Shown here: positions 12,804 through 42,872 of the stretch, in pieces
How the letters are laid out: every line of letters begins with the position of its first letter
Numbering within the stretch: the stretch's first letter is position 1
Assembly (NCBI GenBank): GCA_010015805.1
Contig: ML978128.1
Coordinates: forward strand, 744,001-808,000
DNA: 64,000 nt
Source: Rhizodiscina lignyota
Taxonomy: Eukaryota
Direction of reading: 5' to 3'
Position numbers and translations under genes: made by a program
The notes under the pieces: model-generated
Databases searched by the model: none
Told to the model about the DNA's origin: nothing
Seen by the model: only the letters and a program-made list of their open reading frames with translations

Positions 12804-14201
12804 CTATCCCATTCGCAACTGGAAGCCTGCGCCGCCCTCTTCCCTCTCCGCGCCGAAGAGACCGCTGAGATCAACAGCACCAAACTCAACCTTTCCACCT
12901 TCGCCTCTCTTTGGCGCGCTGGGCGTGTCTCGCCGCCTCTGCTTCTCTTGACCAGCCTTGCTGGGAAACGTAGGGAACATCTCCTTCGCTTTGGGTTTCG
13001 GGTCTTCCTTAAAGTAAGGATGGTCCAGAACTTCTGCTGCCGAAGGTCGCCCATCAGGATTTAAAGAAAGGAGGGACAATAAGAGGTCGACACCGGCGTT
13101 GGTAAGGAGCGCAAATGTACGCCTTATGTTTGGCTTCGTGGCGTGTGGTGGAGGGTTCGGAGGGAGACGTAGTGATCGGGCATTGGGAAGTCGTCGGAAG
13201 CCTGGCCATGTCGTGTCCGTGGGTATTCCCATAAGCGTGAGTATCTTGGATATTTGATCCACCTCATTCTTACCCTGAAGTATCGGCTCCTTCTGTAGTA
13301 GCTCTCCAAAGATGCACCCCACGCTCCAAAGATCGATCTCAAAGCCGTACGTCTTCGCACCTAGTAATAGCTCCGGCGCGCGATACCAGAGCGTAACCAC
13401 AAGCTGTGTGAGATTCGGCGGAGGTGGATCACCGGTGTATCTCGCCATGCCAAAGTCGGCCAGCTTGATCTCGCCCTGATTATTCATGAGAATGTTGCTT
13501 GTCTTAAGATCCCGATGCAGAATCCAATGGCTGTGAAGAAACGCGACAGCAGATGTGAGTTGAGCCATGAGCGTCTTGGTTTCGGACGGCAAGAAGGGTT
13601 CTGACATCGAGTCCTGAAGCGTCTTAAGATCGTGTTCCACAAACTCCATAACAATGAAGACGTCGTCTAATGTATCGCCAACCACCACCTCTCTCAGATC
13701 AACAATATGTGTGTGACTGCTCTCCTTAAGCGTCTGAATCTCCCTCAGCGCAGTGACAGGAAACCCATCATTGAGGTTATCCATCTTCAATTTCTTCAGC
13801 GCGACAACCTCCGCTGTCGCAGTCTCTCTCGCCCTTGACACCCAGCCATATGACCCTTCCTCAATGTGATTCAGCCGCTCAAAGTTATCGACGTGTCGAC
13901 AAGGTCCCCACGCCGGCGCCGCAAAGCGTAGCAGTTTCCTCGGCTGCTCTGCCTTCTCTTTCGTTCTGCTGTCCTCGCCATCGTGAGATAATCTACGTCG
14001 TTTGGTAGGCCGGTCTGAATCTTCGCGGTTTTGTTCGTCCTTTCGAGCCGCAGCCTCTTCCTCTGCCTTCTTGCGCCGTACCTCTTCCTCTTCTGCTTGG
14101 CGCTGCTTCTCGAGTTTTGCACGTTTCTTTTCCTCCTTTTCGCGCTTCCGCTGCACTTCTTCTTCTGCGTTGTCGGCCCAGCGCGACTTTGCGCTCGACA
14201 T
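12804..14201 (-). CDS. CDK11: CDK11/PITSLRE-like cyclin-dependent kinase (CMGC), intronless
   Basis: IEEGSYGWV, GFPVTALRE, HRDLKTSNIL, ADFGMAR, VVTLWYRAPE and the C-terminal MFPTFPSKAGQE, with a charged N-terminus. Confidence 0.92.
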   Translation of the reverse strand: MSSAKSRWADNAEEEVQRKREKEEKKRAKLEKQRQAEEEEVRRKKAEEEAAARKDEQNREDSDRPTKRRRLSHDGEDSRTKEKAEQPRKLLRFAAPAWGPCRHVDNFERLNHIEEGSYGWVSRARETATAEVVALKKLKMDNLNDGFPVTALREIQTLKESSHTHIVDLREVVVGDTLDDVFIVMEFVEHDLKTLQDSMSEPFLPSETKTLMAQLTSAVAFLHSHWILHRDLKTSNILMNNQGEIKLADFGMARYTGDPPPPNLTQLVVTLWYRAPELLLGAKTYGFEIDLWSVGCIFGELLQKEPILQGKNEVDQISKILTLMGIPTDTTWPGFRRLPNARSLRLPPNPPPHATKPNIRRTFALLTNAGVDLLLSLLSLNPDGRPSAAEVLDHPYFKEDPKPKAKEMFPTFPSKAGQEKQRRRDTPSAPKRGEGGKVEFGAVDLSGLFGAEREEGGAGFQLRMG

Positions 14202-14363
14202 GGTGGTGTTGCGCAATCAAGGTTGGAGAGTGAGGTTAGAGGGGGTGGTGAGCTCGGGGGAGAGGAAAAAGCTCCGCAACGGAAGATGTCATCGAACGAT
14301 TGATGGCTCGAGCTTCAACTTCAACAAGCTTGTGATAATGCGCTTTTACTTCGAAACTGTATT

Positions 14364-17828: not shown

Positions 17829-18279
17829 TTTGAAACAATGCAATTGCGGTGGAGGAAGGATCGAGGAGATGAGATGAAGCTCGGAAGGAGAGAATAGAGT
17901 GTGAAAGGCGATGGGCGAGGACTTGATGCGTTGATGGAGTTTTTTGGGCGGAGTCCGGTAGCGTTGAGCTCCCCGTTGACAAGCTCCGATGGCCCGTGCG
18001 CTACAGCTCCCTAAAAATTAGCGTGCCCAAGAACCTATGTACATTCGAAGCAAATCCTTTGCACATAGTTTCCAGGAAACTGATTTGTATTGTATTCAAT
18101 AGTGCCTCAACTGAATTATGTTTAGGTATCAGAAGGACTATCGAACCGATACAATTGGCTACTCACTACGGAGTAATCCATAGCTTTCTTGTACTCAACT
18201 GTGGGTGCCTTGTGGATGCTTTGCCCCAATTCTAAACTAGTTCAAGGAGACCTCAGATGCCATAACATTTAGAGGATAG

Positions 18280-20205
18280 TTATAGAAGACTCAAGCGTCG
18301 TGATAGAATCGACCCTTGCGCAGAGTAACAAACGCCCTGGCCATCCATCAGCCCCTCGACATAACACTCTCCAACAAAGGTGTTGTCGAGCGAGGGATGC
18401 AAGCTTTCTGAATCGGAAAGTCTGCAGCGGACAATATACAGCATCTGGCCACCAAGAAATCCGAATACTTTGTCCCCTACTTGCATCGATGCCGGTCCAA
18501 TTCCCATGAAGCCAGTTTTAGTTCGGAAGAATCGACGATACACAATATTGCACGCCAGTGACACACGCATATGGTGAGCACTTTGAATTTCATCGGCCGT
18601 AAAGTTTTCCACAGAGTCTCTCTTCAATAGCTCATTCTGAAAGTACGCCCCGCGGACAAGACCGAAATTCGGAGTGCGCAGCACATCTCCAACAAGTGTG
18701 TGCAGGTATGCTTCGTGGTTTGTGCCCCCGGACCGGTATGGAGAATTAGGATCTTTAGGTTTCCACGCTTTCAGAGCTGCATCGACGTCGTTTTCGGATG
18801 GGCACAGACTTTCAATCTCGGAAACCGTGTCGACCTCAAAAGCGTCGACAGTCAAAGTGCTACCTTCGAGAGAGATATTGCTTGTGGAATCCAAACTTGC
18901 ACTGTACAGCCTGTCGTCGATCTTATATTCCTGTTTACTCTTCTTGAAAATGTCAAAATCCGAGAATCCATTCCAGTTTGGCACAAATGATGGCCAAGTC
19001 GCAACCGCCGTGGATTCGGAAGACCCCGATACGTAGGCGAGAAAGTTCAGTCGATGCAAAGGAGGGTACACGGCAATACAATATCGGACCACGTCCGTAT
19101 AGACCTGGCTGAGAGGGTTGCTGTAATCCGGCACAATAATGTCCTCGTTCTTATCAACCAGGCCAAGAATCGCATATACCTTGTCTCGAGGGTCGGTGCA
19201 AGAGAATGTTCGTAGAAATTGGAGTGCGTCTAGAAGCCGCAGCTCCCGGTGTGCGCGGAGATCAGCCATCATGAGCATGCAGTATGCTCGTCTCGTTTTA
19301 ACTGATTTGAAGAAATATGCAGGCATTTGAGATACTAGCCTGGCCAGCATCAAACTCCCAATGAGGTCCGGGAACGGAATCCAAGCTCTACCACACATGC
19401 AGTATGTAGGTGCTGGACCTGTTGCTTCTTGGACTACCCATGCTCTTTCCCACCAGAGACTCTGGCTCAACTTGTTGATCGCATTCCACTCACGGTCTGA
19501 AGAGATTATTGAGATTACTTTGGCCAACGCCTCCTGGTCTCCAGACACTTGATTCAGAATGAATCGGAAAGGTCCCCGCGAAGGCCTCTCAATGCCTCCA
19601 ACATAGCTTTTCCATGCACTTAGAATGTCAATTGCGATCGTGTGATCCTGGAAAGTGTTCCCAAGCCAAACGCAGACTGAAGCGGATTTCTCGTAGATAT
19701 AGCTCATATAACGGACCTGGCTGCTTCGCTCCGCCTGGTCCTGTTGATTGATACTTATTTGGTCCACCCATAGGTACTGGCTTGTCTCGACAACCTTTTC
19801 AATAACGTTATCAAGAGCATCCGCAAGGTTTCGCGAAATCCCGAGAGGATGGGAATCAATTTCTATTATGACATTATCGGTTCGGTCGCCCCAGGCGTAT
19901 GAAAGCGCCGTATAAACAGGAACGGATTCAGGTTCATCGAGACTCGCTTCTATAAGGTTGAATTTTCTACACGGTGATACATCACCTCTGGATTTGTCAT
20001 GCTGAGGGAGGAGGACATGGTACCTTGTTAATACTTTCGCGGTCTCGAAGGTAATTTCAACAAGACGAATGTTCTTTTGTCCTTGTAACGGGCAATACTT
20101 GAAGTTCTTCCGGATAACTCAGAATCTGATTTAGCTCAGGTCGATCTAGAGAAAGTTAATGGTCTACTTGGACTTACCTTCACCGCAACTATCTGTGCCC
20201 GACAT
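18280..20205 (-). CDS. Heterokaryon incompatibility (HET domain, HET-6-like) protein; 5' exon junction uncertain
   Basis: Frame open from ~20118: IRLVEI..YTALSYAWG..LWVDQISINQQDQAERSSQV..M..IY, WWERAWVVQE, CTDPRDKVYAILGL, PSFVPNW, RRFFRTKTGFMGIGP and FVGECYVEGLMDG. Confidence 0.88.
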
Positions 20206-26949: not shown

Positions 26950-29185
26950 CTAAGCTGGGTATCTTCCATCGCGAGGTGGCGCAAATGGCTGCGCCGGTAA
27001 ATGAGACTGCGGTAAAGGATACGTCTGCGAAGGCCCGGATGCGGTTGTCTGTGAGGGTATTGTCGACTGAGAAGGCTGGCTAGTAAATGGTGGGTACCCA
27101 TGCGGCAGCGATGGATCCAGCAAAACAGGTATGTCTCTAGACCCATCATCATTCCGGGAGGCTTCTGACATCGGATACTCTTCTCCCAAACCGTCATCTA
27201 CCCCTGAGCTTTCCTCTTTTCCTCTCTCATCTCTTTTCTTGTACTCTAGCGCCCGGAGGGTCTTAATCAGCCTTCCAACATCTGGGCCGATGCAGACAAA
27301 GCCGTGGTCCTTCTCCCTCACGTACCAGATCAGCTTGAATATTAGCCACAGCGGCAGTAGAATGATCGGAGCTGCGTATGCGACAGCAATCTTTGTGAAC
27401 GAGGGTTGCGTATCCCACCATGTAGCGCTCGCGAAGGCCAATACAAGGACGCATCCAATGAGACCAGCATAAGCAAGAAAGGGCTGGGCGAAGCCCAGAA
27501 ACGTGTAGGCCTTGTGCGTTGGCCCTAACCGTTTGTATGCAGGATAGTTATTAGCGATATCTGCATCACAAAGATGGAGCCTGCGGAAAGGAACTTGATC
27601 AGCGATGCGTTAAGTGGCTCGCTTGAGTTAACATACCATCTGCAGTAGCGGATGAATGCAATGCAGAGCACAATCCACACGATAAAGCAACTGATGCTCG
27701 CAGAAGTCGAAAGGATTTCTTGTAAATCCTGGACAGCAAACCCTCCCTTCAACTGAAGGAAAGGCAGCCAGATGAAAAAGAGCGCAGAGACCAGTACGGA
27801 ACATGCAGGAACGCCGTTCTTGAAGGGTACAATCTTAAGCCATTGCAGGTGCTTGCCGATAAAGTTCGTCTCGGGTATTTGTGTGGCAAGACCGTACAGC
27901 GTACGTGAGGCGACATATAATGACGTGTTCGAGGATGAGAGAACGCTAAAGATGAGACAGCCGTTGAGAAAGCTGGCAAGAGATCTGTGGCCCGCTTGCC
28001 AAGTTGCAAAGACCACCATGCTACGAGTCGGTGGTGGAAGTGTGATATTGTTATAAACGGTGCCGTTGATACCACCATAGATTTGTGGAAGATGCGGATC
28101 TGTCCATCTGACGTTCAACGCCTCGCCGACGGCCAAGAGAACATAGAGAGTGAGGATAAAGTATGGCATAACTTGAGATGGTCGGCGAAGGTCCTTGGAG
28201 TATTTAGCTTCGTAGGCGGTAACGACGAATATCTCCTGTCCGAGGTAGCTGAAGGCTACAAGGGGAATGGCGTAACTATGTACAATATCGTCAGCAGACT
28301 GTTTCGACAGAGGAGTCAAGAATCGACGCACCAGACGGCTGTGGGGTGATTGTTGGCGAAGACATTATTATTCTGGAAGCCATCGTCAACAGCTGAGAGA
28401 CATTAGCAAAGCTCAAACGAAATCGTCCAAGATACGTACGGCCGTTATTTCCAATGTGCGCCAATCCCGCAATGACGTAGAGCAAGACAGCAGTGCCAAA
28501 TGCGAGGAACACCTTCAAAATGCCACTGATAGACTCAATCCAACCAAATATAGAGACAGGGCTCAAGTTTATGCCCGTAACACCAATGGGTATAAGAACG
28601 TAAAAACCGAGGGTTTGCCATAACTGTGACATACCCCAATATTTCGAAAGATTCGCAGCAGCAAGGTTTTGAACGGCGAAGACTGATGAGAAAGTATACC
28701 TGGAAGTGTCAGTGTTCAGGACCTTGACTAACATTAAAGGGTCACTGACCAGTACGCGATTCCAACGATCCAGCTCAAGTCACGGTCCACAAACGCCTTG
28801 GTGTACTCGGGGAGCGCATTGCGGGCCGGGAAGAGCTGTACAAACTCGCTGATACCGTCAAGTACAGCGATCGAGATGAGACCCATAAGGATGACTGAAG
28901 TGAGGAAGCCCGCCGGACCAGCAATCTCAAGTGCTTCACCATTGCCTGAGAAAGCTCCTCCTCCAATAACGGCGGTTAGAACGATAGCCTGGAGAGAGTC
29001 AGCGCGGAAGCGTCAATCCCAGTCTCACTGCTCACAAAGATTTGCCAGCTTCGTAGTTCCTGCCTAGAAATGTTGTCAGGAATAATTCAAAGCGACGCCT
29101 CGAATGAACGTTTGTGGCGCCGTCAGTGTCGCAACACGTACCTCAGCCCTGTCCCATCACCAGAAATATTTCGACGAGAAGTCAT
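26950..29185 (-). CDS. APC-superfamily (YAT-type) amino-acid permease, sequence-divergent, multi-exon
   Basis: Spliced ELRSWQIFAIVLTAVIGGGAFSGNGEALEIAGPAG, FGWIESISGILK, FSYLGQEI, SVLSSSNTSLYVASRTLYGLA and NGVP; many hydrophobic segments; Pro/Ser/Gln-rich C-tail. The start codon is inferred. Confidence 0.82.
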
Positions 29186-29582
29186 TGCTGCGGTGGGACT
29201 TTGGCAAGGAAAAAAACTTGTAGTGCGTTTCACTTCTGCGCATGATCAGCCTCGTAGCATAGCTGAACAGATATATCATGAGCATGCTCTCGCATTTGCT
29301 CGCAAGAGCCTCATGTTCAAAGCCACAATTCTGTTTCCTGCAGATTCGCAGCCTCCACAATGTTGGGGATGGCGCGCAGACTCGGCCCAATCGATAAAAG
29401 CTGCAAGCGACTTGGCTGCAGCTTTTACGAGAGCTGGCCTTCTGCCTTCTTTTGCCTGACATAGGCAGAGATGGTCTAGGCAAAGCCAGCTGAGAGGCCC
29501 TCGAGGCCTTAAAAATCGTATCTTAACATATGATGGAGGTGCGCAAACTTTGGACATTCTTCTACCCAGGGTCCTTCTCATC

Positions 29583-30026
29583 ATGGTACCTCAGATGATC
29601 CAAAACTGCATTCCGCCCAAGTACGAGAGATATACTGTGAGGAAAGAGACCCTCGAAGCCGCTTTGAAAGAGAAATACAAAAATGAAGGAGGCGATGACT
29701 TAGACTTCAAAGTGGAGGTATGAATTCACAGGTTCAATAACTGAATTGCAACTCATCCCCGAAAGCACGTCAGTGACAGATGGTCATTCCACGCGCCGGA
29801 GGAGCTATCCAAGGTATGTGGTACTCGTTCCCATTGCCCTGAGGCTGAGACTAAGCGTAAGATACAGAAACAGATGAAGTGAGTATCACAGAACCCCGCT
29901 CGACGACTTAGCGAGCTGAGAATGTGCCGCGCAAAAAGGCGTCTGGTCGAGCAAATCAAGGAGGCCGAGCCCGAAGCTGCGGCCACGGTGGCGGAAAATC
30001 AGGCAACGGGCGAAGCGCTGGAGTGA
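29583..30026 (+). CDS. Small (93 aa) four-exon protein of unknown function, absent from the ORF track
   Basis: Exons 29583-29717, 29766-29813, 29868-29878 and 29939-30026 with GTATGA, GTATGT and GTGAGT donors and 48-60 nt introns splice in frame to MVPQMIQNCIPPKYERYTVRKETLEAALKEKYKNEGGDDLDFKVEHVSDRWSFHAPEELSKKQMKRLVEQIKEAEPEAAATVAENQATGEALE. Confidence 0.68.
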
Positions 30027-30535
30027 GCAGGCTGGCATCGATTGAGATGAGGAGAGTTTGCGATTGGCAATAGAATTTGAGTGCACAGGAAGGAGGGAGG
30101 GCGAGTAGTGGTGATTGGGAACAGGGGGTTGTTGCCCGGTTCCGTTTCAGGTTAGCGCTATATCGCACTTCTATCAAGCCAAGGGGATGCACGACGCAAT
30201 TGATTTCTTGAACGTCCACACCCGACTGCGCCTCCCGATTTCAAGTTGCATGACCATGCATGCGGACTCGCTACAGACTCGGTCTGTGATGCCCAGACGA
30301 TATGTCTTTGTGACTTGGGGCGGTCTCGTCATACAGTAGAGCAGGTTTGCAGGTAAGTCGCTGAGCCACCACCCCTCGATGGCTGGGTCGTGGATGATGG
30401 ATGGCATTGCCTCATTCGAAAAGTAATATCTCTAGAGATGACAACAGTAAAACGCGTTGGGTAAGACATTGGTTCAATTTCCAACAACGTTCCAGCTCGG
30501 ACTGCCTACTAGCATTCAATCCGTTCTTCCTGATT

Positions 30536-32306
30536 ATGACCGAAAATGTATCGATAGCGAAAGCGCAGACATTGGCTGCGCTGGAGAGACTTGCGGGCAA
30601 AGGGCCTGAGTCCCGAGGGCGTCCCGCCTTGGAGATCTTGACAGATGAAGACGACGACATCAACATCAGTATCATAGACATAGAAAATGGTAAGTTTCGC
30701 AGGATAGCTTATCGAAATTGTCACTAACGGACATAGGTGCGGTCAATGTGAAATCATACCGCGATGCCAGTGCACTCGAGAAGGCGATCCAGGAAGAAAA
30801 GTGCTTCAGGATCATGTACGTCAATCCCTATTTTGTTACTGATATGACTGACAAGAAATGATGCAGTTCGATCTATTCAGAGTCCACAATTGATCCATTA
30901 GAAGTGTCTCCACATGTATTAGAGAAGATATTATCCAGATATGAGGTCCACTCTGACTTCATGCATGTCGTGGCTTCTTTCGGAGATGAACCCCATCTGG
31001 CAGAAAGCAGCTGCAGCAACATGGCCATGAAGTCAACGGATACGGGTGACATTGGTAGGTAATAATATCCAATATTAGGCACCGAAACTTATCATGAAGC
31101 AGAAATATCATACCAAATACGCTATGTGGAGGAAAATTTCCGAAAGGGGATGAGCAATCCTTGGTCATTTCGACATACAGGAGTTTACCACAAGCACAGT
31201 ACATCATCAGATTTATTCATACTCCTACAGCCACAGCAGAATGCTACAGGAGAACGAAAACTATTGGGTCTCGGTAAGAACGGTTCACTTAAGCTTCAAC
31301 AGTGTCCGTTCATGCTCCATGAACTGCTCTTCTCCGCCTACTTTGAAAACTGGAGATGGTACCATCGCTACTTAGCCGACCGCTTCTCCAGTGTGGTAAG
31401 TAGGAGATACTTTTATCTACCCTCAGATAACCATAACTAACCGAAATCAGAACGACTTGGCAATGGTCGTCAGACCTGCAAATGCCGAAGCCGCATCGAG
31501 CTTTGAGCGAGTACAAAGTCTTCGAAATGTCAATGACTTTATTCTCTTCTCAAGTGGCTGTTGCCGCGGCGACCTTGAGGTTTTGGAAGGTTTCGCAAGT
31601 CTGCGAAATCACGAGTCGTATATGGATCCAGACAATCTCAAATCCGAGATTACCAGAATGCGGGGGTATATCGAAAGTGCAGATGCGCTGCAGGAAAGAA
31701 TTCGTAATGCTATTGACCTCGTAAGCAAACTTCAAGGATATCATGCTGTCCATCATGCGCTTACGATGACCAGGTGGGCTATACATTGATGCTTCATAAC
31801 CAGATGGAGACCGCCAAAGTCGATAAAGAGCTCCGTGATATGACCGGAGAATTAAAACAGCTGACCGAACAGACCGTCGGCCTAAATACGGAGATGAAGA
31901 AGATGACCCAAGACACAATAGACGACAGCGTAACGGTGAAGATTATCACCTTCGTATCGGCGTTCTATATTCCAGGAAGTTTCGCAGGGGTGAGTACAGA
32001 GTGCGAACAATGCATGAAAATTCGTCTTGAGTGTTAATGATACCGCAGACGCTTTTTGGGATGAACTTTTTCGGGTTTGACGCTATCCACAGGCGGATCG
32101 TAATTGCCAACGACTTCTGGATCTTCATCGCCACCTGGATTCCGCTGACGCTCATCACTATCGGTCTGTATTTGTTTGTAGTTTGGATGAATCCTCGCAC
32201 CAAGGGTAAAAGAGGGGCTCACTGGCTCTGGCAAAGACCTTCCAGATCGCAGCTCCCGCTATCGGAGGAAAAAGGTCTTAATGACTCGACGCTCAGCGTT
32301 CCATAG
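30536..32306 (+). CDS. Fungal CorA-like membrane protein (coiled-coil stalk plus two C-terminal TM helices with GMN motif), multi-exon
   Basis: Spliced EISYQIRYVEEN..PWSFRHTGVYH..FILLQP, a helical stalk, then DSVTVKIITFVSAFYIPGSFAG|TLFGMNFF..FWIFIATWIPLTLITIGLY; six GT-AG introns. Confidence 0.85.
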
Positions 32307-32359
32307 CGTGCGAGAAGATGCGGCTTTATGCATGAAATGATTTCCTTTAGTCATAGCCT

Positions 32360-35300
32360 TCAGGAAGGGCCGAATTCCACCATCTCAATTTCCCCTTTGT
32401 CAGTGCAGGTGACTAGGCTGATAATATCATTGACCTCTGTGACCGTCATGGCTACCGGCGAGTTCTGCTTCGGCCTAGTTTTCAAGCTGTGAAGTACTTC
32501 AGCAGACATTGCTGTCTTGCCTATGCCATGACTAGTTCCGTATGTGATGTTGTATTCTTTTAGTTTTGGATGACGTCCAACGCTGTCCAGCTCTAATGTA
32601 ATGAGTGAGTGATCGTTGAACATGCAGGCAGTGAGGACCCGCGTTATCGTCTTGGAAGCAGCTTGTCTCTCCTCCTTCAAGCGAAGCCTCGAAGGGAAGA
32701 AACGATCGGAAGGCGCTTCAATGATAGCGCCAAGCTGAGTGTTGTATGGGAAAATGCGGGCTCCTGGATCACCTCCGATCTTCTAAGAGAACAGTTAGAG
32801 AGGTAATTCATCGTTGTACTTGAGTAACGCTTTACCGCATAACTCTGCTTCATAACTGGATTTTGCGATAAAGTAGTGCCACTTTCGATACGCCACACCA
32901 GTAGTTCATCATTTCCTTGGCCGAAACTCCACGCATATAGTAGGTCTCCCGCGTCATTGAATGCGGCCGACGCAAACGATCGGTTCGGTCTGAGAGAAAG
33001 GCGTTCCTGGTAACCCTCGGAAAACCGTCTGTTTAATTAGCTATTGCTTGTATTTCAGGCCAATGATCTTACTCAACGTGCGTGAAGAGGATAACGTCGT
33101 CGCAGACAAATGCAACAGCGCCTTGCGGTGACAACCCAAAATGTTGAAGAGATGCTATCTGCTCGTGTTCAGGGCCGGAAAATGAGTGTCCTAGATCGAC
33201 ACGGCAAAACATGATCTGGGGGATGATCAGTCTCGATAATTGATGCGTAATCGATCTGCGCAGTTGCGGTTACTGTACCTGCTTCTTCCCTTTGAGTCTA
33301 CCTCTAATGACCAAAAAGGGGCCAGCCATGGCGATATGCTCCCATTTACAGTCTTTTCGCAGTTCTATCGGCGGTCGGAGCTCGCTGGCTCGTTTTCCGA
33401 CTCGATCGAGTGAGAAACGGTATACAACATTATTCACCAAGCACGCTATCCACGACTCGCTCATAAAGATGTCAGTTGCAGTTCCGACTTTCGAAAGCTC
33501 GATAAGCTGTCCCCTTCTCTCAACCTCCAGAGAGAAGGTGCACGAACCGCGGTTGGGGAACGGCTTGCCTCCAATAGGTTGAATTCCATGTGCCGACGGC
33601 GGCATGTTGAGAGTCGAAAGCGACAGTCGCGAAGGCTGAGGTGAACTAGTCAGTGATGTGACAGCGGCATTAATGGATGTTGTCCCCGAAGTGGGCGAAG
33701 CTGACGGTGATTTTTGCCGTGAAATAGGGATCTGTAAAGGGGTTGGCCCTTGGAAGATCGTTTCCTCACTCAAAGTATCTATCCGCTTTATTGTAGGTGC
33801 GCTAGGTGCGCTATTATAGGTCCGACAATCGGAGTTAATTGACGGCACCTGCGTTTCCGAGGTCGAACGTGAGGGAGGACTACCTCCCGCTAAATGGGGA
33901 GCACGTCCAGGATGAAGACCACCTTCGGTGAACGACCTGCAAACACAGCCAGTCACAGAATGGTGCCCAAGAAAATGCTGGCGGATATGGAATGTCATCT
34001 CCATCGCCTGTTTCCCCGTTGGTCGAGTTGCAGTGTCTGGGTCTAGCATTCTCAAGATTCCATCAACACCGGAGGTCATCCAGGAACTATCATGTGAGTA
34101 TCGAACAGGTATTCCAGCCAGCCATGTTATTATCCAAGGCCGAATCTCGTACTCGGACCTTGCGTCCGGAGCAGCCAGATTGCGAGATACCTTTCGGCGA
34201 TAAAAGGAGTCAGTGCCAATATGGCCCTTTCGAACATTTCGAAATTCATTGACAAGGGTATGTCTGCCGAGGGCAAACAGCAGCACTTCGCTGAAGAGAC
34301 ATCCAAATGACCACACATCGCTCCGGCGCCCAACAGTTTTCTGGTTATCGCATACTTCTGGTGCTGTATACGATCCTTCCACACGCTTCGGTCGAGTCTT
34401 GAGTGTCAGTTGGTTGAAGTAGTCCAGTGGCGAGACGAATTTGGTATCTTGCTGCTTCGATTGCTCCCGAAAAACAGAAATCCCGAAGTCCGATAGCTTC
34501 CAGTGACCGACTGGCGTTTGAGAGTCTGTGGGGCCTTCAATGAGCACATTTGCTGGCTTGAGGTCCATGTGAGCGCAATACAGTGGCTCAGGGCTAGTAG
34601 AAACCGTGATGGTTTCATGGAGCCATCGTAAAGCGTCAGCAAGTGACCAACATTGTCTGAGAAGATGGTCGGTGACGCGAACGGAGTTGCTCTTGCACGA
34701 ATCAGTGAGTTCTGGGAACTTGTCAGGGAACATATAGACCCTTTTGTTTTCGTCGCTGATGCCACAACGCAAGAAAATCCCCAGATCCAGGTGCTCGGCG
34801 AACGGTAAAAGGATGTAGTGGACTTGGTTATGGGTAATTGTGGCGAAATGGAGCATGATGTGATCATGCCTTGTGAGACTCTCCTTTAGCATCTCAACAT
34901 TTTGGACTTCTTTGTCGAATTCGTCCTTGATCTTGATCCGCTTGCACGCTACGAGATTAGGCTGTGGGCAATTAGTAGGTCTCGACGACGAGAACGAGTT
35001 TACTCACACCCTCGCTAAACCCGATTCTCTTACTTTTGAGGTATCCTCGGGGGATCCTTACTTCATCCACTTTGCCATAGCCGCCCACTCCAATGTTCTT
35101 CTTTATACTCTCGAAGGGGAGCCTTCTGCGCGAGTCCACCTTATGTGTTTCCGGCGTTGCATACTCTTCAATAACGTAGGGTATGAACATATATTGCTGC
35201 TCGATGAACTGGTCTCTTTTTTGTGGGGTCAGAAAGTCTAGTCGATCGTGTTCTTCGATTGGCAAGTCGGCGTCCGTCAGCACAGGGCCCGAGCTGTTCG

Positions 35301-35697
35301 AAGGGTACATATTCCTGTGGAAGTCTCGTAGGCAGTCTCTTGCATCGACGACAACCAGAATGGAAAGTATCTTTTTCATGAAACTCCGTATGACATCCAC
35401 TTCCTGGTCGGCCCAGCCAGAGCCGATCACGCGAGCCACATTGCGTGGGTCTCCCCAAATTCTGTTCAGATCGTCTTGAACGATGAATGGCTTGCAATAC
35501 TTGTTGTTCGGGTCTTTCTTTGCGTCAAGCAGCTGTTTGTAGATAAGTTCAATGCCATCGCCCCGTTGCTGATTGCTCTGGGAATATGGAGGCGTTGGCG
35601 AGTCGTGGGTAGTTACGCGTGGAGTGTTTCCAAAGCTCCCATAGAACCCAGAAACAGCTCCCGGCCAATTCATTATCGAATCGTTTGGTCCAGCCAT
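32360..35697 (-). CDS. Atypical fungal Ser/Thr protein kinase with N-terminal helical domain, Pro/Ser linker and beta-rich C-terminal domain
   Basis: IGVGGYGKV, ACKRI, HMDLKPANVLI, WKLSDFGIS, YTAPE and SDVWSFGCLFSE. ORFs 34972-35697, 33270-34892 and 32360-32680 are joined by four GT-AG introns; the C-terminal exons contain propeller-like FGLSPQGAVAF and AAFNDAGDLLYAW. Confidence 0.87.
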
Positions 35698-36622
35698 AGC
35701 TTGCTATGAACGTTCCAAAAGGGACAATGGCTATTTATAATTCGAGATATTGCTAGTGTAAGAAGGAATTCGAAGAGGACAGAAGGGAATGCCATGGAGC
35801 CCTCAGAGGATCTGTTCCAAGCGCTGAAGTCAGGCACGGCTAGCCTTGCAGAATGCGGCTGCTGAGGCCGCCGAATTGGTGAGGTTCTCTTTCGGAGGTA
35901 TCTCACGACAGAGCGGACAGGTTCTTTCTCAGACAATAAGGGAGACTCAAAGACAATGGGAAAAGCGAAAGACACGAAGACCTGAGGCAAAGAATTGGAA
36001 TTGTAATCGCGACAGGGAACAGCCTGATGAGCTGGTTACGATGCAGACTCTGCCCCTCCACCACAAGGCTACCATCTCACAAAATGGGTGAGCTCGCTTG
36101 GCGTAGTTTCCGAGAGAGCGGCCGGTGGCGCATATCGAATGCGTGTTGCGGCATCGAGCTGGCCAAGCACACGCCGTGCCCACCCCTCATCTTGTTCTTC
36201 GACCGGTGGACCGGGACGAGCGACTGTATTGCCCCTTAGGAGTGCCGGTGAAGTTCGCAGAGGGGTGGGAGAGGTACGAAGTACACTTGGGCTGGACATG
36301 CCATATTCAATGTTGTCTGGTGCTAACACTGCTGACGTAAGTGACTTCTGCATGCACCCAGAAGCTCTAAATTGTCCTGGAAACTTCAGAATGCCTTTGC
36401 AGATCACGGTTTTGCAAAATGACTACTGGACGACATATAAATGGCAATAGGATATGATTATTAAAATTAGCCTAGCGGTCTCGCATCTATTGGAACTGCC
36501 ATAACATCCACACTTTTGGAAGCTGGATTCTGTCCCGCCAGCGGTCCGTCAAAGCGCCTTGCGAAGGAAAGAGACAAATATAATCGCTTGCTTCTCGAAA
36601 TGCTGCTAACCTATACCCACGA

Positions 36623-41291: not shown

Positions 41292-42872
41292 ATGGCGTCA
41301 GAGATGCCAATTCGCGTTGACCGCGGGACTCCCACCCCTCCCCCTGAAGATGAGAATCAGACCGTAAATTCGGCGACAGAGGGCACTGGAGTCCACATCT
41401 TCAACTCCGATACATTGTCACCACTCTCAGCAAATTTCCCAGGCAAAGTTCAATATGCCAGCTTTGGGTCGATGTCGCCGCCAAAGGCTTCACCCGCAAT
41501 GCCTTCCAGCGCCGCTAGCAGCCTCTCGCCGTACAGCCCAATGTTCAGCGAAAATGGCAGTGATACAGCGGCGAGTTCGGAGAACAAGAACCCATTCAAC
41601 TTCAAGCCGGTTCCGTACTCACCCGGGGGCCCGGTGCAGACGAAGGCTGTAAGACTACTAAGACTCGACGTCCGTCTCTCAGAGACCCGGGAATTGATAT
41701 CACTAATTTTATAATACTAGGATCTTGGACGACGCCGTGGGCACAAATACAAGCACAGCAGTGTCTCGCACCAAATATTCCTCGAACCCGAGCCGAAAAC
41801 TCCTCTGTCCCTCCCGACCTCCTTGCCAATACCCACATTCAAAGAGTTCAGGACAAGCATGTCAGGAGATCAAAAGCTCCGTATGCTCTGGTGCTTCTGC
41901 CATCTTCTGATATCCGGTTATGTGCAATGGAGCGGGCACGGCTCCCTTGCCATGACCGCGCTCTCACATCTTCTCTTCTTCGACGCAATCGGCGCATTTC
42001 TCTGCGTCGCAGTAGACATCGGAGGCAACTTTGAGGTATGGAAGCGCAGCAGCATCCGCTATCCATTTGGCCTCGAGCGGGCTGAAGTTCTCGCTGGACT
42101 CGCCATGTCAATTGGCGTTCTGTTCATGGGCCTGGACTTAATATCGCACAACCTCCAGCATTCGCTTGAGAATGTGGGCGGTCACGAACCACACCATCAC
42201 ACAGCGAATCCATATCACGAGCGCGTGCCGTCCGGATCTGTGGATTTTGCGGCACTTGCTGCAATTGGAGCGACATTGGTCTCCGCATCTGTACTGAAGA
42301 ACCATGAGCGGATGGGCCGGGCGCTGCGGTTCAACCTTCCGTTGCCCTCTCTTCTGTCTAATCCGACACATCTGCTCACCTTGTCCTGCTCCACTTTGAT
42401 GCTGCTTCTCCCTTTATTTAGCTTCAAGCTGTACAAATCCGTCGATGCTGGACTCTCTGTTTTGATCGCTGCTTTAATGTTTGCACTTGGCGCGCGACTG
42501 TGCTACGCGCTTGGAAGAATGCTGCTGATGAGTTACCCCGGCGCTCCCGGTGGAGCGGGCGACGTCGTTGCAAAAATTGAGGAAGATGGAGCAGTAAGCA
42601 GTGTCGACGAGGCGAGGTTCTGGCAAGTACATTATGGGCTTTGCATGGCGAATTTGAAGATCACGCTAAGAGACATGGGCGAGAGGAACGAGGACGAAAT
42701 CAACAAGTTAAGGGCCAAGATTGGTAATATGGTGAGGAACCGTCTGGGAGGAGGATATGGTGGAGGGAGGGGTGGTGTGAAGTGGGAAGTTAGCACGCAG
42801 ATTTCTTTTGATGGGGGAGGGCATGGGCATAGTCATGCGCGTACGCATGTGCATCCTCACACGCATGCGTGA
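41292..42872 (+). CDS. ZRG17: Cation diffusion facilitator zinc transporter, Zrg17-like
   Basis: GRRRGHKYKHSSVSHQIF, SSIRYPFGLERAEVLAG, His-rich loop and tail, and RFWQVHYG; intron 41649-41720. Confidence 0.85.

Follow-up and report, generated by a model that had tools for sequence, protein, structure and literature searches.

A conserved cluster of permease, micro-protein, CorA-like and protein kinase genes in ascomycete fungi

The 64 kb window analysed here, a 64,000 nt stretch of the genome of Rhizodiscina lignyota, carries at positions 26950–35697 a block of four intron-rich genes: a predicted amino-acid permease gene, a micro-gene, a gene for a CorA-like cation channel, and a Ser/Thr-type protein kinase gene. 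These genes form a conserved, co-inherited ascomycete cluster, in which order and orientation are kept despite differing flanks. The unit is probably found across many distantly related soil fungi, and the four genes probably work together as one unit. The preferred reading, to which a probability of about one half is given, is that the products of the cluster make up a membrane-transport unit for cations and amino compounds that is regulated by the kinase. A first-pass annotation of the window had predicted a linked module that recurs in ascomycetes, and co-localisation of the genes in metagenome loci strongly supports this.

Metagenome contigs of the Joint Genome Institute (JGI) were scanned with an alignment of seven CorA-like proteins, giving 516 pattern matches and 83 relatives, from which 80 loci were kept. 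At a threshold of at least 95% nucleotide identity these fell into 66 groups, some of which may still be close kin. The loci were then searched by tblastn with the window kinase, permease and micro-protein, and after that with profile hidden Markov models (HMMs) made from the first matches. A summed score of at least 150 bits was taken as a strong CorA match, and 29 groups reached it. The sequence downstream of the CorA-like gene is at least 380 nt long in 22 of them and under 240 nt in the other seven, which are uninformative.

The kinase of the window recurs in 21 of the 22 informative groups, in 17 of them at E ≤ 1e-10. Four of the 21 calls (L027, L001, L024 and L031) are weak and partial, the contig ending inside the gene. 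The kinase gene lies directly downstream of the CorA-like gene and convergent with it in 20 groups, and beyond the permease in the remaining one (L019–L021). The rearranged cluster can be followed in L020 (2349–11332), where the kinase is situated past the permease and convergent with it, and all four genes are still adjacent. The permease was found, in divergent orientation, in eight of the nine groups with at least 3 kb of upstream sequence. Micro-gene matches in the groups with at least 1.2 kb upstream (n = 10) were firm in six, weak in two and very weak in two, always between the permease and the CorA-like gene and on the strand of the latter. In seven groups a single contig spans the permease, CorA-like and kinase genes; six of these keep the order of the window, and one is rearranged.

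Distant CorA-like loci, matching in the transmembrane region only, served as a control. The kinase was found in none of the 13 control loci with at least 2 kb downstream, and the permease in none of the eight with at least 3 kb upstream (Fisher p, close versus control loci: 9.5e-9 for the kinase, 7.4e-6 when only strong matches are counted, and 4.1e-4 for the permease). Among the more distant relatives sharing the N-terminal domain and having at least 900 nt downstream, the kinase was detected in two of eight (firmly in L056, weakly in L060). That homologues of the four genes might be unlinked elsewhere, as the first-pass annotation had allowed, was checked in these loci and is not what was found. 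The most constant pairing is that of micro-gene and CorA-like gene; weak micro-gene matches persist in L029 and L033, neither of which yielded a kinase. In L029 (1–7176) the weak micro-gene match upstream of the CorA-like gene is accompanied by extra small open frames further upstream on the same strand.

A tblastx comparison of window positions 18000–45000 with all loci gave matches within 27000–35500, plus one from a single locus near 36000. The flanks of eleven long loci have nothing in common save permease tails and one gene family at differing positions, and tblastx placed the M20 peptidase and sterol methyltransferase genes that neighbour the block in the window near no relative's locus. 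Protein identities to the window across the loci are 24–64% for the CorA-like protein, 26–39% for the kinase and 33–54% for the permease. That the block stays intact at 24–64% protein identity, within differing flanks, argues that selection holds the four genes together.

Flanks that vary between loci would also be seen if the block were a mobile cassette, for example one that supplies transport and self-protection to a cluster handling a small molecule or xenobiotic; a metabolite would be taken up or exported with its metal counter-ion under kinase control, and the enzymes would lie elsewhere or vary between species. Many metabolic clusters of fungi include a permease and are kept together as blocks. 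However, no enzyme or transcription factor is common to the flanks, and the peptidase and methyltransferase genes beside the block in the window are not conserved with it; a role of this kind is considered quite improbable.

A quick maximum-likelihood tree of the CorA-like family placed the window protein (P0001), 15 linked loci and L029 in one clade with a Shimodaira–Hasegawa-like approximate likelihood ratio test (SH-aLRT) value of 100. The linked loci L047, L056 and L058 are located elsewhere in this tree, outside the main clade. Linked loci thus occur in several branches, which means that the linkage is old or that the genes were copied together as a block. Near-identical contig pairs show 30 synonymous and 7 non-synonymous changes in the CorA-like gene, and 14 and 7, respectively, in the region encoding the kinase C-terminus; in this small sample the mostly synonymous changes suggest purifying selection, with no hint of hypervariability.

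The tight packing of the block described in the first-pass annotation is confirmed by the spliced coordinates (Table 1). The start codons of the permease (29185) and micro-gene (29583) are separated by 397 bp, a spacer of 509 bp lies between the micro-gene stop (30026) and the CorA-like start (30536), and the stops of the convergent CorA-like (32306) and kinase (32360) genes are 53 bp apart. The 397 bp region is presumed to be a bidirectional promoter. A conserved cis-element was not demonstrable in the six divergent regions compared. One 7-mer occurred in 6/6 of them against 0.0 expected, and was rejected as a shared promoter motif because in three of the six it lies inside the second coding exon of the permease, the limits of the regions being loose. 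At the other end of the CorA-like gene, a distance of 53 bp between stop codons implies that the 3′ untranslated regions of the CorA-like and kinase transcripts overlap, and antisense interplay between these transcripts is possible.

Table 1. Features of the four-gene block of R. lignyota (window positions; exons are listed in the order of transcription)
Feature	Position	Strand	Remarks
Permease gene, predicted divergent yeast-type (APC/YAT-like)	26950..29185	-	633 amino acids (aa), 7 exons; spliced model and Pfam AA_permease
Permease exons	29142-29185, 29036-29063, 28750-28988, 28440-28699, 28332-28392, 27637-28275, 26950-27580	-	
Divergent intergenic region, permease/micro-gene	29186..29582	.	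397 bp; presumed bidirectional promoter, by inference
Micro-gene NA57DRAFT_77503	29583..30026	+	93 aa, 4 exons; identical to database protein P0007
Micro-gene exons	29583-29717, 29766-29813, 29868-29878, 29939-30026	+	third exon 11 nt
CorA-like cation-channel gene NA57DRAFT_77504	30536..32306	+	485 aa, 7 exons; identical to database protein P0001
CorA-like exons	30536-30689, 30737-30815, 30867-31054, 31103-31395, 31451-31720, 31774-31989, 32049-32306	+	
Gap between convergent stops, CorA-like/kinase	32307..32359	.	53 bp; same arrangement in 20/22 informative locus groups
Ser/Thr-type protein kinase gene	32360..35697	-	1043 aa, 5 exons; identical to database protein P0006
Kinase exons	35008-35697, 33279-34961, 33073-33215, 32836-33028, 32360-32782	-	
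Kinase regions			conserved N-terminal (residues about 40-195), kinase domain (about 198-555), Ser/Pro-rich linker (about 556-790), C-terminal beta-rich domain
Kinase exons 4-5 (residues 840-1043)	32360..33028	-	confidently modelled part of the predicted beta-propeller-like domain

The window as a whole is gene-dense, with Pfam families (E ≤ 1e-4), mostly housekeeping, in 28 of 46 long open frames scanned. Close packing is by itself nothing special; what exceeds chance is the joint recurrence of the four genes elsewhere. Even so, spacers as short as the divergent 397 bp and the convergent 53 bp would make breakpoints costly, and shared regulatory DNA (a bidirectional promoter and overlapping 3′ ends) could hold the block together with the proteins acting in unrelated processes. 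The absence of any fusion among the proteins surveyed is in keeping with such an arrangement. Short spacers are common in the window, yet conservation is limited to this block, and the 509 bp spacer between the micro-gene and the CorA-like gene is under no such constraint, yet separates the most constant pair. In L019–L021 the kinase has changed its place, now lying past the permease, without leaving the cluster, and linkage is found in several deep branches of the quick CorA-like tree (L047, L056 and L058). Linkage without a joint mechanism is accordingly judged unlikely.

The spliced models of the CorA-like protein, kinase and micro-protein match database proteins letter for letter, while that of the permease was built here only. 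The CorA-like protein comprises an N-terminal alpha/beta domain, a long stalk helix and two C-terminal transmembrane helices, located at residues 381–407 and 423–447 in an AlphaFold2 model. This model was made from a 56-sequence alignment and has a mean predicted local distance difference test score (pLDDT) of 87.6. The GMN motif (residues 404–406, exon 7) is at the end of the first transmembrane helix, in the context YxPxSF...FGMNFF. The top matches of the model in a Foldseek search of the PDB were all to Thermotoga maritima CorA (E 3e-11, probability 1.00, about 400–430 aligned columns), with a TM-score, normalised by target, of about 0.53. By these models, the whole protein is predicted to have the complete CorA fold.

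At the level of sequence the relationship is much fainter. The NCBIfam corA model gave 18.4 against a cut-off of 200.75, which was not reached, and no relative was found in the PDB by sequence. PF26616 is the precomputed label of P0001 and of P0002–P0005, and a local Pfam scan gave no match to the PF26616 model. An exhaustive HMMER search returned 1385 representatives at E ≤ 1e-3, 341 at E ≤ 1e-10 and 51 at E ≤ 1e-30. This search was unbiased with respect to the motif, and all seven of the closest relatives (7/7) retain GMN. A tally of GMN in the metagenome loci was discarded, as the GMNFF pattern had been used to fetch these loci and an intron was read through in some alignments. Also set aside was P0077, a 3655 aa protein with 36 stretches matching CorA-like residues 200–264; this is a composition artefact, and Pfam gives only a poly-Q-type low-complexity family for it.

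The kinase passes the Pfam Pkinase threshold (PF00069; 62.8 bits, cut-off 31.7). In an alignment of nine locus relatives with exon 2 of the window gene, the catalytic Lys and Glu, HxDLKPxN, DFG and PE are invariant (10/10), and the Gly loop is visible. In place of HRD, the catalytic loop has HMD in the window kinase, and every aligned relative has H(M/L)D. Together, the invariant catalytic residues and the H(M/L)D loop point to a catalytically complete, non-RD kinase. The placement of fragments in the kinase alignments was checked against tblastn coordinates, since the aligner stacked fragments of different regions. A kinase profile compared to the PDB found generic kinases only, the best being FGFR3 at 4.6e-17. 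The region N-terminal to the kinase domain (about 190 aa) is conserved in six loci; it has no Pfam relative, its profile gave 0 matches in the PDB at E ≤ 1, and a search of longer proteins with the N-terminal exon found itself as the sole match.

The C-terminal 200 or so residues of the kinase are modelled as all-beta, with pLDDT values of 64–91 from about residue 850. The protein was folded on an alignment of C-terminal fragments alone, and the N-terminal and kinase parts of the model, with pLDDT below 50, are unreliable. Comparison of residues 844–1043 with solved structures (VIA-align) gave Z-scores of up to 12.1 (8hpo_K) and 11.7 (6jp6_A), with 150–187 residues aligned. Most of the 50 listed structure matches are, going by their titles, presumably WD40-type or other propellers, and the ESM Atlas pointed to WD40-like clusters, which is taken as a lead only. 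Pfam found no WD40 domain in P0006 at E ≤ 1, nor in the C-terminal piece of a relative at E ≤ 0.01. The C-terminus is best described as a predicted beta-propeller-like domain, of which the confident model covers only about 200 residues.

The six permease introns are all GT..AG and 47–78 nt long. The protein has a short N-terminus and a Pro/Gln/Ser-rich, non-conserved C-terminal tail. Two exon frames match Pfam AA_permease (PF00324) at 65.5 bits (E 4.9e-18) and 35.2 bits, passing the cut-off of 24.6. The best NCBIfam match of the permease pieces is TIGR00913, an amino acid permease subfamily which we take to represent yeast-type permeases; scores of 85.4, 20.4 and 43.5 bits, against a cut-off of 578.7, refer to exon pieces only. 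These matches suggest a divergent yeast-type amino-acid permease.

All four genes had been described in the first-pass annotation as non-canonical members of their families. This description suits the CorA-like protein, which is below the cut-off of PF01544, and the permease, the pieces of which (exon pieces only) are far below that of TIGR00913. It does not suit the kinase, which passes the Pkinase threshold and whose sole unusual features are the HMD motif and long extensions. Nor does its fold appear to be that of an atypical kinase, as had been suggested; divergent, non-RD and, by its motifs, catalytically complete would be a more accurate label.

The micro-protein matched no Pfam or NCBIfam family, and exon 1 of its gene, in a word-based search, had itself as the sole match. 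Other loci have the exon 1 and exon 2 motifs too, with the intervening intron at a conserved position, on the strand of the CorA-like gene and upstream of it. Conservation supports these two exons only, which leaves the 3′ end of the gene uncertain; a second acceptor near 29911 (in the intron 29879–29938) would lengthen the product in frame. The nearest ESM Atlas cluster (about 101 aa, 71 members, Ascomycota, score 0.89) is again a lead only, and comparison with the kinase N-terminal region by hhalign showed the two to be unrelated (probability 0.1). A predicted complex of the CorA-like protein and the micro-protein, run without custom alignments, scored 0.12 against a mark of 0.34, a value that bears on binding in neither direction. 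Given its recurrence, the micro-gene appears to be a real gene that encodes a conserved ascomycete orphan protein.

Two membrane-transport proteins, one of them with the predicted CorA fold and an intact GMN filter, are constant members of the cluster and sit beside a catalytically complete kinase with a predicted docking propeller; this combination points to transport regulated by the kinase. In yeast, permeases and the transport of cations are under the control of kinases that include Npr1, Hal4/5 and Ptk2. In the proposed mechanism, the CorA-like protein would form pentameric channels, as CorA does, with a filter of GMN type, and the yeast-type permease would carry or sense an amino compound. 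The non-RD kinase would dock on a partner through its beta-propeller-like domain, and perhaps also its conserved N-terminal region, and phosphorylate the channel and/or the permease, so setting activity or stability. The micro-protein, whose closest tie is to the CorA-like gene, may be an accessory or regulatory subunit. Co-expression of the parts would follow from shared promoters and from 3′ ends that overlap.

Several observations weigh against this proposal, or against its generality. The CorA-like protein scores 21.4 bits with PF01544, below the 27-bit cut-off, and GMN is retained in only 28 of 56 aligned long family members, so that many members of the wider family may not be Mg2+ channels. 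Retrieval of the loci by GMNFF and PGSF peptide patterns biased the sample towards GMN-bearing CorA-like genes. L029/L030, the single exception among the 22 informative groups, in which the CorA-like protein is 51% identical to that of the window, are without kinase and permease, and carry an ADH-like (ADH_N) gene downstream; the kinase was likewise not seen in six of the eight more distant relatives sharing the N-terminal domain. The taxonomic breadth of the cluster was taken from sequence divergence and unshared flanks alone. Gene fusions, which the first-pass annotation had named as one kind of support for a system, were not found: among 150 listed CorA-like representatives, the 55 of about 420 aa or more showed no kinase or permease fusion by Pfam.

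Three further genes were noted in the window outside the block. A HET-domain gene (18280–20118, minus strand; Pfam E 2.4e-27) is about 7 kb from the block and is not conserved with it. A cation-efflux (CDF family) gene (41721–42872, plus strand), about 6 kb past the kinase, is a third metal-transport-type gene nearby, and is also not conserved with the block. A second, canonical kinase gene (12804–14216, minus strand; Pkinase E 3.7e-60) is unrelated to the cluster kinase.

A role in defence, allorecognition or stress signalling had been suggested for the block by the first-pass annotation. In a module for defence, allorecognition or cell death, the kinase/propeller protein would sense a non-self or danger cue and open a depolarising CorA-like channel, while the micro-protein would act as an inhibitor or antidote and the permease would be a co-sensor. 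A sensor-like kinase tightly linked to a membrane protein, the linkage being confined to the block, is compatible with such a module. All ten aligned sequences of the cluster kinase are of the non-RD kind, a feature linked with receptors of innate immunity, and bacterial type III CRISPR systems include effectors of CorA type. The fungal CorA-like superfamily is large and variable (1385 representatives, with GMN gone in half of the 56 sampled), and, in the genome paper PMC3897900, a 'CorA transmembrane region' family is reported to be expanded in a lichen fungus, read there as Mg2+ transport by name alone. The HET-domain gene is nearby, but outside the conserved block, and the four proteins themselves carry no NACHT, NB-ARC, HET, HeLo, gasdermin-type or other NOD-type domain detectable by Pfam. 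The near-identical contigs differ mostly by synonymous changes, without sign of hypervariability in this small sample; the canonical GMN filter is kept in the cluster-linked clade; and a nutrient-type permease is a constant member. A term search of two cell-death/NLR surveys gave no occurrence of CorA. The defence function is thus left unsupported, and appears improbable.

A broader version of this idea is an ancient, self-contained ascomycete signalling cassette, in which the propeller-bearing non-RD kinase would gate the CorA-fold protein as an ion-flux effector (for stress alarm, defence against antagonists or cell death), with the permease as transceptor and the micro-protein as brake. The chances of this are rated as low. 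If true, it would be a eukaryotic counterpart of the bacterial CorA-effector defence modules and, given linked pairs in several deep branches, much of the fungal CorA-like expansion would represent effector diversification rather than Mg2+ nutrition.

Whether as the kinase-regulated transport unit favoured here or in another role, the cluster offers a first functional lead on the large and uncharacterised CorA-like family of fungi (PF26616), through its dedicated kinase, its permease and its small partner protein. Annotations such as 'hypothetical' and 'kinase-like' become testable, either as kinase signalling coupled to cation and amino-compound transport or as ion-flux defence. Non-metabolic conserved clusters are rare in fungi, where gene order decays fast. 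No description of a permease–CorA–kinase cluster was found in searches of open-access text, nor papers on PF26616 or on CorA-like proteins together with Dothideomycetes, nor anything relevant on CorA with heterokaryon incompatibility or NLR proteins. A study of fungal cluster detection, CLOCI (PMC11381361), mentions nitrate clusters; a term search of its main text gave no CorA, kinase, permease or magnesium, and its supplements could hold such a family.

Several known systems resemble parts of the cluster. The CorA/Alr1/Mnr2/Mrs2 Mg2+ channels (MIT superfamily, PF01544) are one of these, the CorA-like protein matching T. maritima CorA in its predicted overall fold and having two C-terminal transmembrane helices, with GMN ending the first. 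The cluster protein differs in that its sequence is below the Pfam cut-off and without a PDB sequence match, its N-terminal domain is labelled as the fungal PF26616, and its gene is linked to those for a kinase, a permease and a micro-protein. We know of no description of such linkage for Alr1/Mrs2-type genes. The CorA effectors of bacterial type III CRISPR systems are likewise CorA-fold membrane proteins linked to a signalling enzyme, whereas the present cluster is eukaryotic, has no CRISPR or nucleotide-signal genes, and gives no indication of activation by a second messenger. Fungal cell-death systems that pair an NLR with HeLo/HELL, or a gasdermin with a protease, also combine small, tightly linked genes for a sensor and a membrane effector; their defining domains are missing from the cluster, in which neither hypervariable repeats nor diversifying change was seen.

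Fungal nutrient clusters, such as those for nitrate (crnA-niiA-niaD) and proline (prn), have in common with the block a permease, a divergent promoter and conservation as a unit in distant fungi. In contrast to these, the block includes no catabolic enzyme or pathway-specific transcription factor, its members being two membrane proteins, a kinase and a micro-protein. Npr1, Hal4/Hal5 and Ptk2 are Ser/Thr kinases, as is the cluster kinase, which is proposed here to control amino-acid permeases and cation transport at the membrane as they do. Their genes are unlinked to those of their targets and encode no C-terminal beta-propeller, whereas the cluster kinase is non-RD (HMD), with an N-terminal region of its own. 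The yeast SPS amino-acid sensor consists of the permease-like sensor Ssy1, the adaptor Ptr3, the protease Ssy5 and casein kinase I, and the likeness lies in a permease homologue that signals with a kinase and a beta-propeller-like adaptor surface. Compared to SPS, the cluster is without a protease, the kinase and the predicted propeller are in one polypeptide, the permease N-terminus is very short, and a CorA-like channel is added.

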